A model generated the notes under the pieces. The model did no database searches. It worked only from the letters and a program-made list of their open reading frames with translations, and had not been told where the DNA came from. DNA of 64,000 nt from Escherichia phage vB_EcoM_JNE01: sequence record OR670491. One strand, written 5' to 3'. Positions within the stretch are counted from its first letter, which is position 1, and each line of letters begins with the position of its first letter. A program made the translations under genes and the position numbers. Below, in pieces: positions 53,549 to 58,161 of this stretch.

Positions 53549-54115
53549 ATGAAATCTAAACAACAAGTAGATGAAGCACTGGGACTCCCTAGTGCTCAAC
53601 AATGGATGGAAATGACTGGTGAAATACCAGAACAGGATGAAGATTCAGAAGAAATGGATCTTTATCAAGATGAAGAAGACCTATCACCTAATGAGATTTC
53701 TTTAGAAGAAGCTAAATTGGCGATGGAAAAGCTTAAAGCAATGCGTGTTCAGTTGCGTGAATTGCCAGACATTACGGCAAGAAAAACTCAACTAGACCGT
53801 TTGGCACAACTAGCTGAAAGTAAATTTACTGATATTTTTGACCGTGCATTCAACTGTGAAGACCGATTTGCTGCTGAAATGATTAATGCTGCTAACTCAA
53901 TGCTTAAAATTGCGTTAGATGCTCATGCGAAAATTATCGATTCCGATGTTAAGCTTGTCGATCTTCAATTGAAGAAAGATAAGATGGAAATTGAATTAAA
54001 CATGAAGCCTAAAAAGGGTGAATTACCAATGGGTGACCCGAATGCTATTGAAGGTCAAGCTGTGGTACATAAAACCCGCAATGAAATGCTTGCATCATTA
54101 AACAAAAATAAATAA
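53549..54115 (+). CDS. hypothetical helical acidic protein
   Basis: 188 aa, acidic N-terminus, coiled-coil-like. Confidence 0.45.
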
Positions 54116-54145
54116 CTTAAACTACTATATTATGGAGTTATTATA

Positions 54146-54679
54146 ATGAACAAATTACAACAAATCCTCACGGATAACAAACCTGTCTATGAATATCGTG
54201 TAAAATTTGCTTTTGAGCCAAGCAACGAACAACTAAGTAAAGTAACACAACGCCTTATGGATCGTTATGATGCTTTCGAAGTTGGTGGCCTTAAGAAAAC
54301 TATCTTCATGGAAAAACCACTTGATTTTTATGATTTAGATTGTGGTGAAATTTGGATGTTTGATTTTAAATGTAACCGTGGTGTTCAATCAAACGTACTA
54401 ATGTATGAAATTGGTAATCTACTAAGCGTAACCGAAGCACTAATTCGTATTCGCAGTAAAGATGAACCACGTCAAATTGAAATGACTGATCTGGAAGATG
54501 ATATCGATTTTGATGATTATGAACCAGTTATTGGTGTACCATTTGGTGCTCCAGAAGACAGTACTGATATCGCTGGTCAGGAACGTGCTGAAACCGCAGT
54601 CAAAGATGCAATTGATGCAGTAAAAAAGGACAATAAATACTCTCAATATATGAGTGCTGGTTTTGGTAAAAAGGATTAA
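54146..54679 (+). CDS. hypothetical protein
   Basis: 177 aa. Confidence 0.45.
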   Translation: MNKLQQILTDNKPVYEYRVKFAFEPSNEQLSKVTQRLMDRYDAFEVGGLKKTIFMEKPLDFYDLDCGEIWMFDFKCNRGVQSNVLMYEIGNLLSVTEALIRIRSKDEPRQIEMTDLEDDIDFDDYEPVIGVPFGAPEDSTDIAGQERAETAVKDAIDAVKKDNKYSQYMSAGFGKKD

Positions 54680-54682
54680 GAT

Positions 54683-55228
54683 ATGAGTATACTCAATGAA
54701 ATGTTTGAATATGACGATCAAGAATTGAATGAAGCTCGTCCTTATAGCCGTTCTCAAGGTGCAATCGATAATGCAAAAGGGAAAGTTAAAGGATTCTTCG
54801 GTAGTGGTCAGGTTGAGCAAGGTGCACAAGAAGTTGGTGCTGAAGCAAACCGTCTATGGGCTGAGTTTAAACGTTATATAGGTCGTAAGTACGGTAAAGC
54901 ACAACCTTCAGTGCCATTTGCTGATGTTGCACAATTTTTTAAAGGTAACAACTTAGATGTTAAGCATCTTGGTAACAATCCACGTCGTTCCTTTACACCT
55001 AAAGATGTAGGTGCAGCATTACTTGCGGCAGCACGTGAAAGTATGGATCTTTATCGTGATCAGGAAGAAGCTCCTGCTGAACAACCTAAGCCGCAAGGTA
55101 AACCACAAGAAGAACCTCAACAACAACCAGAACCTAAAGCTGCTCCACAGCCTGGTGCTAGTGTTCCTGATGTTCTACAAAAACTAAGTCCAGAGCAACG
55201 CGATCAACTATTACGTATGCTTTCGTAA
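54683..55228 (+). CDS. hypothetical protein with Pro/Gln-rich C-terminus
   Basis: C-terminal EQPKPQGKPQEEPQQQPEPKAAPQPG low-complexity region. Confidence 0.45.
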   Translation: MSILNEMFEYDDQELNEARPYSRSQGAIDNAKGKVKGFFGSGQVEQGAQEVGAEANRLWAEFKRYIGRKYGKAQPSVPFADVAQFFKGNNLDVKHLGNNPRRSFTPKDVGAALLAAARESMDLYRDQEEAPAEQPKPQGKPQEEPQQQPEPKAAPQPGASVPDVLQKLSPEQRDQLLRMLS

Positions 55229-56753: not shown

Positions 56754-56775
56754 TAACTAAAAGGATTTATTCAAA

Positions 56776-57783
56776 ATGGCTAAAAAAATTAACGAAGCAC
56801 AAGTTAAAATCGATATCGCAGGTCTAGAATCTGAAGATTTAGAAACCCTATCACGTATGCTTGCACTAGCTGGTCAAGCTGAACGCCAAGCACCTACTGT
56901 TGCTCCAGTTCCTTCTATGGGGTCTATGACCCCATCTCTCTCCCCAATTGAACCACTAGATATGGATTCTTTAGGTGGTAGCGAAGAAGAAGTTGGTGTA
57001 GAAGTAGGGGCTGATGTTGCTGAACCAGTACAAGATCCACTAGATTCAGCAGTTGATAGTTTATCTGCTGATGTAGGTGATTTTGGTGCTGATGATGAAA
57101 TTGAAATGGATGCAGAAATTAGTGCTGATCCAGTAGGCGATGATTTCAGTGCAGAAGAAGAAGTTGAAGATATGGGTCTAGGTCTTGGTGGTCAACCGAC
57201 ACTAGAATCTGTTGAAGAAGAAGAGGAAGAAGAAGTAATAGAAGAAGAATTCGATTTCAGCCGTATGCTTTCCCTAGCTGGTATTGATGACGAAGACGAT
57301 TCCTATTCAGTTGAAGACAACCCAGATACTGAAGTTAAAATGTCAGAGAATCAATTCCTACCAGACCTATCTATTTCTGAAGAAGATGAGTCCAGTGATA
57401 CTACTTCATTTGGTCCTTATCCTTCTGAAGCTGACGCTGTTCGTGATGCACAACGCAAGACTAATGGTGTTGAAGGTGATAACTTTGTCGTTACTGCTAA
57501 AGGTAATCAGTTCTACTGGAGTCGTGTTGTTCAAGAAGATCTTGACAATGTTCCAGATCCAGAGTACTATGACAATGAAGGAAACGAGAACCGTGTTCAC
57601 AAGTTTGAACCAAAATTCCCTGGTACTGCGTTAGGTGATAACCCACTAAACGTAAATGAGAGTGAAGAAGATGAAGACTCTCTAGAAAGTAATCCAGAAC
57701 TAGAAGATGATTCTGATGAAGAAGTAGAAGATATCTTTGAAAGTCTCCAAGCTAAGTACGAGAAATTTCTTGGAGGGAAATAA
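56776..57783 (+). CDS. highly acidic protein
   Basis: 335 aa with long Asp/Glu runs (EEEEEEVIEEE, DDEDD). Confidence 0.5.
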   Translation: MAKKINEAQVKIDIAGLESEDLETLSRMLALAGQAERQAPTVAPVPSMGSMTPSLSPIEPLDMDSLGGSEEEVGVEVGADVAEPVQDPLDSAVDSLSADVGDFGADDEIEMDAEISADPVGDDFSAEEEVEDMGLGLGGQPTLESVEEEEEEEVIEEEFDFSRMLSLAGIDDEDDSYSVEDNPDTEVKMSENQFLPDLSISEEDESSDTTSFGPYPSEADAVRDAQRKTNGVEGDNFVVTAKGNQFYWSRVVQEDLDNVPDPEYYDNEGNENRVHKFEPKFPGTALGDNPLNVNESEEDEDSLESNPELEDDSDEEVEDIFESLQAKYEKFLGGK

Positions 57784-57786
57784 AAA

Positions 57787-58161
57787 ATGGGATATAATTA
57801 CCGTGAACTCGTTGAAGCGTTAGATGAAATTACTTCACAGGAAGACGAAAGTTTTTCTGTGGAAACACCTTCAGATGATGTTGTAATCGATTTACTGAAA
57901 GATATCACCAAATGCCTTATCCACTGTGTGGATAAGGTTAAATCAGGTGAAGATGTTGACGAAATCGCTGAAAAATTACAAAAAGCTCGTGACATACTAG
58001 ATGATATGAAGTATAATGATGAAAGTACTGAAGCAGTTGAAGAAGACTGCTGTTACGGTACTGAAGACATGGCTCCTACAATTGGGAAAGATGGCGTCCA
58101 AGACTACAGTGTTAAAGATGCTCCTTCTTATGCAGCGAGACATGGTTTCGTAGGAATGTAA
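57787..58161 (+). CDS. hypothetical acidic protein
   Basis: 124 aa. Confidence 0.45.
   Translation: MGYNYRELVEALDEITSQEDESFSVETPSDDVVIDLLKDITKCLIHCVDKVKSGEDVDEIAEKLQKARDILDDMKYNDESTEAVEEDCCYGTEDMAPTIGKDGVQDYSVKDAPSYAARHGFVGM

Follow-up and report, generated by a model that had tools for sequence, protein, structure and literature searches.

Candidate protease-processed head-interior proteins encoded by a conserved six-gene late module of 121Q/RaK2-like jumbo phages

Introduction

The genome of Escherichia phage vB_EcoM_JNE01 (sequence record OR670491) raises the question of what is encoded by six consecutive plus-strand genes, designated here A to F, that occupy positions 53549-58161 of the 64,000-nucleotide stretch analysed (hereafter the window). 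A sequence-only reading had drawn attention to these genes for the extreme charge and low complexity of their products, and proposed that they might encode internal virion or ejected proteins, scaffolds, or DNA mimics that inhibit host nucleic-acid enzymes. The six genes are best explained as one late module that jumbo myoviruses of the RaK2/121Q type have conserved. Mass spectrometry (MS) of relatives shows that B to F are virion proteins, and A, C, E and F begin with a short segment that ends in a site of the type cut by the T4 prohead protease. Together, these features suggest that A to F belong inside the head, where the protease would process them, and that they are candidate components of the inner body of phages 121Q and phAPEC6, a proposal that we regard as evenly poised.

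A conserved gene run

The window belongs to a 121Q/RaK2-like jumbo coliphage. In megablast comparisons, the segment 53000-59000 matches the 351-kb genome of Escherichia phage Turkey5 over its full length at 99.4%, and genomes of the 121Q/PBECO4/phAPEC6 group (Asteriusvirus) at ~80%. All six open reading frames (ORFs) are present on the plus strand with exactly the limits first proposed for them, and they are coding sequences in the near-identical Turkey5 record. The gene order, which runs from a T4 gp4-like gene through A, B, C, D, E, F and a seventh gene, G, to genes for a MoxR-type ATPase and a VWA protein, does not vary among the ten phages compared, which are diverged and range from Escherichia to Vibrio phages. 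The synteny set comprised Turkey5 (identical to the window), fEgEco12, phAPEC6, 121Q, A4, EJP2, Munch, RaK2, CBB, XaC1 and Vibrio phage 2.275.O.

Searches with A to F returned nothing significant in Pfam or NCBIfam and only clade-specific families in PHROGs, and no enzymatic homologues were found. B to F align over their whole length with PHROGs 14802, 16152, 16305, 15988 and 14971 (E-values 1e-39 to 3e-188); these families are virion structural proteins of RaK2-like jumbo phages.

Virion proteins in relatives

The evidence for the presence of these proteins in particles comes from orthologues in relatives, for which the published tables give coverage without peptide positions. The RaK2 virion proteome lists gp047-051, corresponding to B-F, but not gp046, which corresponds to A (Table S3, PMC3622015). 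For CBB, the proteins CBB_210, 213 and 214 were recovered, and the supplement to the same study records that the counterparts of 211 and 212 were detected in GAP32 and RaK2 (PMC5259590). The phAPEC6 proteome includes gp270c, 268c and 267c, plus the MoxR ATPase gp265c (Table 1, PMC7247149), and genes 557-561 of the 121Q record carry the note "structural protein". Taken protein by protein, B was found at high coverage in CBB (PMC5259590) and C in RaK2 (gp048; PMC3622015) and GAP32 (PMC5259590). D was detected in phAPEC6 (gp268c, 6 peptides; PMC7247149), RaK2 (gp049, 7 peptides; PMC3622015) and GAP32 (PMC5259590), E in CBB (CBB_213, 5 peptides; PMC5259590), RaK2 (gp050; PMC3622015) and phAPEC6 (gp267c; PMC7247149), and F in RaK2 (gp051; PMC3622015) and CBB (CBB_214; PMC5259590). 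The early suggestion that the run encodes virion proteins is therefore borne out for B to F, whose status was already documented in relatives. A, by comparison, was not detected in the RaK2, GAP32, CBB or phAPEC6 proteomes or in the notes of the 121Q record. This fits a degraded, scaffold-like role, and the notion that A is an internal protein holds only if it is a scaffold-like core protein of this kind.

A protease-type site at the N-terminus

The T4 gp21 protease cuts after L/I-x-Glu, in core as well as internal proteins of T4. Sites of the form [LIVM]-x-Glu-[Ala/Ser] lie within the first 6-18 residues of A, C, E and F, as V-D-E|A in A (E9; residues 7-10, nt 53567-53578), I-N-E|A in E (E7; residues 5-8, nt 56788-56799) and L-V-E|A in F (E10; residues 8-11, nt 57808-57819), each kept in 9-10 of 10 orthologues. 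The N-terminus of E, MxKK-I-N-E|A, is almost invariant. C carries two L-N-E sites, at residues 4-6 (nt 54692-54700) and 15-17 (nt 54725-54733). Nine of ten orthologues preserve the [LIVMF]xE core at E6 and seven of ten at E17, and the residue following Glu is A, S, G or T in none of the ten at E6 and in four at E17; in this phage only E17 is so followed. B and D have no such site. Of the 78 other ORFs of the window, only two have one in their first 14 residues, and a set of 23 downstream genes, for the tail and other non-head functions, contains a single case, trivially at Met1; the total is three of 101 ORFs. The enrichment is significant for the cluster alone (Fisher p = 0.002) and for the head module pooled with the cluster (p = 4e-7).

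The pooled head module is that of Turkey5, for which a prohead protease gene is annotated; the protease of this clade is a homologue of T4 gp21. The capsid protein has L-N-E|S at residues 7 and 43, and a cut at 43 would leave ~37 kDa, matching the size listed for the mature protein of 121Q (PMC5646251). The scaffold has L-K-E|S at residue 10 and 11 sites in total (3 per 100 aa), a 75-aa protein encoded next to the protease has I-F-E|S at residue 7, and a 281-aa polyacidic protein encoded between portal and protease (Turkey5 locus L013, 9889-10734) has L-Q-E|A at residue 9. The same N-terminal pattern is found in T4 gp22 (I-A-E|A), gp24 (L-R-E|S) and gp67 (L-I-E|A), the last of which is polyacidic. 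Internal proteins of T4 are directed into the prohead by an N-terminal targeting sequence of ~10 residues that the protease then removes (PMC7697877, PMC3012670). From these parallels we propose that A, C, E and F belong to the prohead core or are internal proteins, with B and D probably their partners. What is new is a conserved putative targeting and cleavage signature that would tie A, C, E and F to the prohead core; a literature search found no earlier report of this signature in the clade, and no high-resolution virion structure that assigns A to F.

Composition of the six proteins

The features that first singled out these genes can be placed precisely. The Pro/Gln-rich tract is residues 122-172 of C, the Lys/Glu-rich tract is residues 384-461 of D, and the 335-aa protein with Asp/Glu runs is E, whose acidic tracts span residues 90-195 and 286-334. 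Extreme charge is a property of E (28.7% D/E, net charge -78, pI 4.05) and F (25.8% D/E, net charge -20), but not of C, with a net charge of -2, or of D, which is charged only locally. A and B each contain ~20% Asp/Glu, and further acidic tracts are found at residues 17-58 of A, 100-141 of B, and 7-31 and 55-96 of F. The 84 ORFs of the window formed the basis of the composition counts. A 25-residue stretch with at least 40% D/E occurs in eight of them, five of which are in the cluster; these five have the most such stretches, with 77 in E alone and at most 5 in any ORF from elsewhere in the window. The acidic clustering exceeds chance for this genome.

Genes A, B and C

Gene A (53549-54115, plus strand) is an ORF of 188 aa in which the disordered acidic tract at residues 17-58 precedes a predicted all-helical body, with helices at 52-70, 75-102 and 108-152 in an AF2 model of mean pLDDT 68. 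It is well conserved (67% mean column identity in an alignment of 10 orthologues) and contains three [LIVM]xE[AS]-type sites, or 1.6 per 100 aa. Profile searches of 5.8 billion proteins connected A to 119 clusters and B to 88; no Pfam domain was found among these clusters, and their named members all come from phages of this clade or from bacterial genome assemblies, most members being unnamed metagenomic sequences. Profiles of A, B and D matched nothing among PDB sequences at E < 0.27. A relationship of A to T4 gp22 or gp68 was considered and rejected, as single-sequence and profile-profile comparisons were negative (hhalign probability <1%).

The absence of A from virions is also compatible with a different function, that of the missing small terminase subunit of the clade, which would set A functionally apart from B-F. 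Two records carry this label, fEgEco12 g301 and the UniRef name for a Yersinia phage fHe-Yen9-03 protein. The table of T4 core homologues in the CBB study has no counterpart of gp16, and its section on packaging identifies only proteins with large-terminase domains in these phages (PMC5259590). Like the T4-type small terminase (gp16, PF11053), A is a helical protein of similar size (~185 aa) that is absent from virions, and it is a conserved product of the morphogenesis region. The sequence, profile and fold comparisons, however, were negative: a single-sequence comparison with gp16 gave no support, alignment to the gp16 family with hhalign gave a probability of 0.2%, Pfam yielded no PF11053 match, and Foldseek searches of the AF2 model against PDB retrieved generic helical hairpins and no terminase. 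The conserved V/I-x-E|A site and the acidic tract also resemble a prohead core protein more than a terminase subunit, and we consider the terminase assignment improbable.

Gene B (54146-54679, plus strand; 177 aa) encodes a confidently predicted ferredoxin-like alpha/beta domain at ~12-110 followed by the acidic tail at 100-141. In BFVD, the B fold has significant matches in uncharacterised proteins of other large myoviruses, including Agrobacterium jumbo phage Atu_ph07 (E = 6.5e-5), and because of these modelled matches the B family may reach beyond the enterobacterial and Vibrio clade. Gene C (54683-55228, plus strand; 181 aa) has a conserved Gly-rich N-terminal half, a variable linker that is the Pro/Gln-rich tract noted above (nt 55046-55198), and a conserved C-terminal helix. 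PHROG and RefSeq label C as Hsp70; this assignment was rejected, since neither Pfam nor NCBIfam gave a match to the HSP70 ATPase or substrate-binding domain.

Genes D, E and F

Gene D (55242-56753, plus strand; 503 aa) contains a duplicated module of ~95 aa, with residues 8-101 (nt 55263-55544) aligning to residues 294-386 (nt 56121-56399) at a self-alignment z of 19. The insert between the two copies is variable and, in the orthologue alignment, absent from RaK2 and Munch. The second copy leads into a variable Lys/Glu/Pro-rich linker (residues 384-461, nt 56391-56624) and a conserved C-terminal helical domain.

Gene E (56776-57783, plus strand; 335 aa) encodes the polyanion. Its predicted disordered acidic tracts (nt 57043-57360 and 57631-57777) flank a conserved C-terminal domain at ~195-292, for which 35 representative clusters were matched among 1.84 billion proteins, and the motif S-R-M-L-x-L-A-G is present in two copies at residues 26-33 and 162-169. 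Across all ten phages the net charge of E stays between -59 and -83, while the acidic tracts, of low sequence entropy, vary in length, are rich in insertions and deletions and are only ~40% conserved. That the charge is kept as tract sequence and length drift indicates selection on composition, as would be expected of a functional disordered polyanion.

This pattern bears directly on the proposal that E, possibly along with F, acts as a polyanionic DNA mimic that is ejected and, upon entry, inhibits restriction or other nucleic-acid enzymes of the host. The conserved negative charge and the presence of E in virions of relatives are compatible with such a role, for which T4 provides a precedent in its packaged and injected anti-restriction proteins, e.g. 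IPI* (PMC3012670). With the Ocr/ArdA-type mimics E shares a strong net negative charge; its acidic parts, however, are predicted to be disordered and are conserved in neither sequence nor length. In known DNA mimics, a folded scaffold positions the carboxylates; the variable, low-complexity acidic tracts of E make a folded mimic unlikely in its case. The parts of E that are conserved are non-acidic motifs and the C-terminal domain. No DNA-mimic family match to E was found in Pfam or NCBIfam, and no similarity to defence or anti-defence families in Pfam, NCBIfam or PHROGs. The mimic hypothesis offered at the outset was thus not supported, the tracts fitting a disordered polyanion better than a folded mimic, and we hold it to be highly improbable.

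The sequence pattern hydrophobic-x-x-M/L-L-x-L-A/S-G, which takes in the two copies of the motif in E (residues 25-33 and 161-169; 56848-56874 and 57256-57282), is also found at the extreme C-terminus of the scaffolding protein (Turkey5 locus L013, 11454-12569), as FLKELDVLSGI. A loose version has only two further matches in the 18,433 residues of the window, and the pattern may represent a shared docking helix. The 281-aa polyacidic head-module protein, whose orthologue phAPEC6 gp228c is a virion protein, resembles E in composition and site but has no detectable homology to it; homology of the two was rejected after BLASTP gave compositional matches only.

Gene F (57787-58161, plus strand; 124 aa) encodes the second strongly acidic protein, which ends in a conserved S-Y-x-x-x-x-G-F-V-G.

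Gene context and transcription signals

The genes around the cluster include a neck gene for a head-tail adaptor (45492-46298), a kinase gene located between it and the tail sheath gene (47383-50046), and three consecutive tail-tube paralogues of 237, 258 and 364 aa (50406-53090). The cluster had been described as lying downstream of the tail module, but its immediate upstream neighbour is not a tail gene. The place directly before A is taken, in all 10 phages, by a T4 gp4-like head-completion (head-closure) gene (53090-53518, plus strand; phrog_218, E = 1.5e-42; PF08722, E = 3.8e-20), whose product has a TnsA-type endonuclease fold. Gene G, the conserved seventh gene of the run (58165-58542, plus strand; 125 aa), is not acidic and has no virion detection.

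Among the tube paralogues, a strong terminator follows the first one only, as a terminator-like hairpin at 51133-51156 on the plus strand. It is followed at 51166-51180 by the motif TAAATAAAGTATATA. Exact copies of TAAATAA-N-GTATATA lie at 45470-45484 and 51166-51180, and because these positions are just upstream of the neck gene and of tube paralogue 2, this sequence may be a late promoter; allowing two mismatches, three matches are found against 2.4 expected by chance. Strong terminator-like sites on the plus strand are located at 50056, 51133 and 60209, and between 51157 and 60208 the only such site is a weak one within the gp4-like gene (53265-53289). The segment 51133-51180 is the probable start of a late transcription unit that comprises tube paralogues 2 and 3, the gp4-like gene and A-G, with the motif as its putative promoter. 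The T4 late-promoter motif TATAAATA was rejected as a signal in this phage on account of its depletion, with one copy in the window against 7.8 expected.

As the genes for the sheath and the three tube paralogues precede the cluster, and no convincing terminator separates them from it, B-F might instead lie on the virion exterior or at a junction, as neck or collar decoration, "hairy" fibres of the sheath and capsid, or capsid cement, in which case the LxE motif would be incidental. Several external densities of phAPEC6 and 121Q are unassigned, among them the cement layer, the hexamer fibres, and the decorations of collar and tail, which favours such a location. The compact fold of B and its high MS coverage in CBB, as well as the lack of a protease-type site in B and D, would suit external proteins. 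However, C, E and F have their N-terminal sites in common with proven head-core proteins, E and F consist largely of disordered polyanionic sequence that lacks fibre-like repeats, and the gene directly upstream serves head completion. We regard an external location as unlikely, though a contender to be taken seriously; if the proteins are external, the finding reduces to routine annotation.

Downstream of G, the interval 58543-58855 contains two tandem, near-identical units of ~92 bp ahead of the gene for the MoxR-type AAA ATPase (58856-60187), which is followed by a gene for a DUF2201 metallopeptidase-like/VWA protein (60264-61688). In each unit there is a perfect sigma-70 promoter of the extended -10 type (TTGACA, 16 nt, TGTGATATAAT), at 58567-58594 and 58659-58686, and from these promoters the ATPase/VWA pair looks early, i.e. 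transcribed by host polymerase. The MoxR ATPase is found in phAPEC6 virions despite these early-looking promoters (PMC7247149). The pair (58856-61688) resembles N4 gp24/gp25 and directly follows the cluster in every relative examined. Elsewhere in the window, two paralogous proteins of ~900 aa (phrog_3573) are encoded at 16157-18856 and 19473-22199, with a 195-aa gene between them.

Discussion

If A to F are indeed processed proteins of the head interior, the following pathway can be envisaged. The N-terminal segment of A, C, E and F, ending [LIVM]-x-Glu | [Ala/Ser], would act like the ~10-residue T4 capsid-targeting sequence to draw each protein into the prohead scaffolding core, whereupon the gp21-type prohead protease would remove it. 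A would be degraded and lost as a scaffold or core protein, and C, E and F, probably together with B and D, would be retained in the head with the DNA. There, the polyanion E and the acidic F might form or fill a DNA-excluding protein phase, and the resulting proteins would be candidates for the axial inner body, might be ejected with the DNA, or both.

In phages 121Q and phAPEC6, the inner body is an axial structure that measures ~91 x 18 nm, with proteins unrelated to those of phiKZ. As five of the six inner-body genes of phiKZ are clustered, the A-F cluster is a reasonable candidate set for the 121Q/phAPEC6 structure. A more specific proposal is that E and F with B, C and D build this inner body, a DNA-organising axial core that a T4-related lineage would have evolved independently of phiKZ, out of disordered polyanionic proteins that enter by way of a T4-like N-terminal targeting peptide, with A as a disposable core or assembly factor. 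In this full form we offer the proposal only tentatively and judge it rather unlikely to hold in every part.

Several observations weigh against a head-interior assignment. The injected internal proteins of T4 are basic, and those of the A-F cluster are acidic. The cluster probably shares a transcription unit with tail-tube genes, and the portal-protease-capsid module lies ~65 kb away. B and D are without a site, the site motif is short, and the statistics derive from ~100 ORFs whose starts were in part called automatically. For C-F, the numbers of MS peptides are modest, as expected in the case of E from the few tryptic sites in its acidic tracts, and published tables report only coverage, so that cleavage and internal location remain inferred. 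Finally, the phAPEC6 authors proposed RCC1-like proteins as candidates for the inner body.

Only two groups of phages, one of them the 121Q-type coliphages, have an inner body visible by bubblegram imaging. A short list of candidates with a predicted targeting and cleavage signal would open the study of how a 350-kb genome is organised and released, and a working N-terminal tag, if it exists, might be used to package foreign proteins into large heads, as has been done with T4.

Comparison with known systems

The closest parallel is the core of T4. Like A, C, E and F, the T4 proteins IPI-III, Alt, gp67, gp68 and gp22 have a short N-terminal segment ending [L/I]-x-Glu followed by Ala or Ser; in both systems the phage encodes a gp21-type protease, gp67 is polyacidic like E, and each set has one member that is absent from mature virions in the manner of a scaffold. 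T4 differs in that its internal proteins are known to be processed, whereas cleavage of A, C, E and F is predicted from their sequences. The T4 IPs, gp67, gp68 and gp22 have no sequence homology to A-F detectable with Pfam, PHROG or NCBIfam, and, besides the contrast in charge, the cluster genes lie beside the tail-tube and gp4-like genes rather than in the portal-protease-capsid block.

The second parallel is with the inner-body and ejection proteins of phiKZ and SPN3US. The two groups are not alike in their proteins: the phAPEC6 authors found none similar to the phiKZ inner-body proteins gp89, 90, 93, 95, 97 and 162, and the 121Q-type phages, unlike the phiKZ clade, have T4-like core genes and, according to the Sharanji authors, do not form a nucleus. 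Yet the phiKZ/SPN3US proteins, which a prohead protease processes at Glu-containing sites, are likewise several virion proteins whose folds are unknown and whose genes form one cluster in a jumbo phage, and their phages, as do 121Q and phAPEC6, carry a bubblegram-visible axial inner body.

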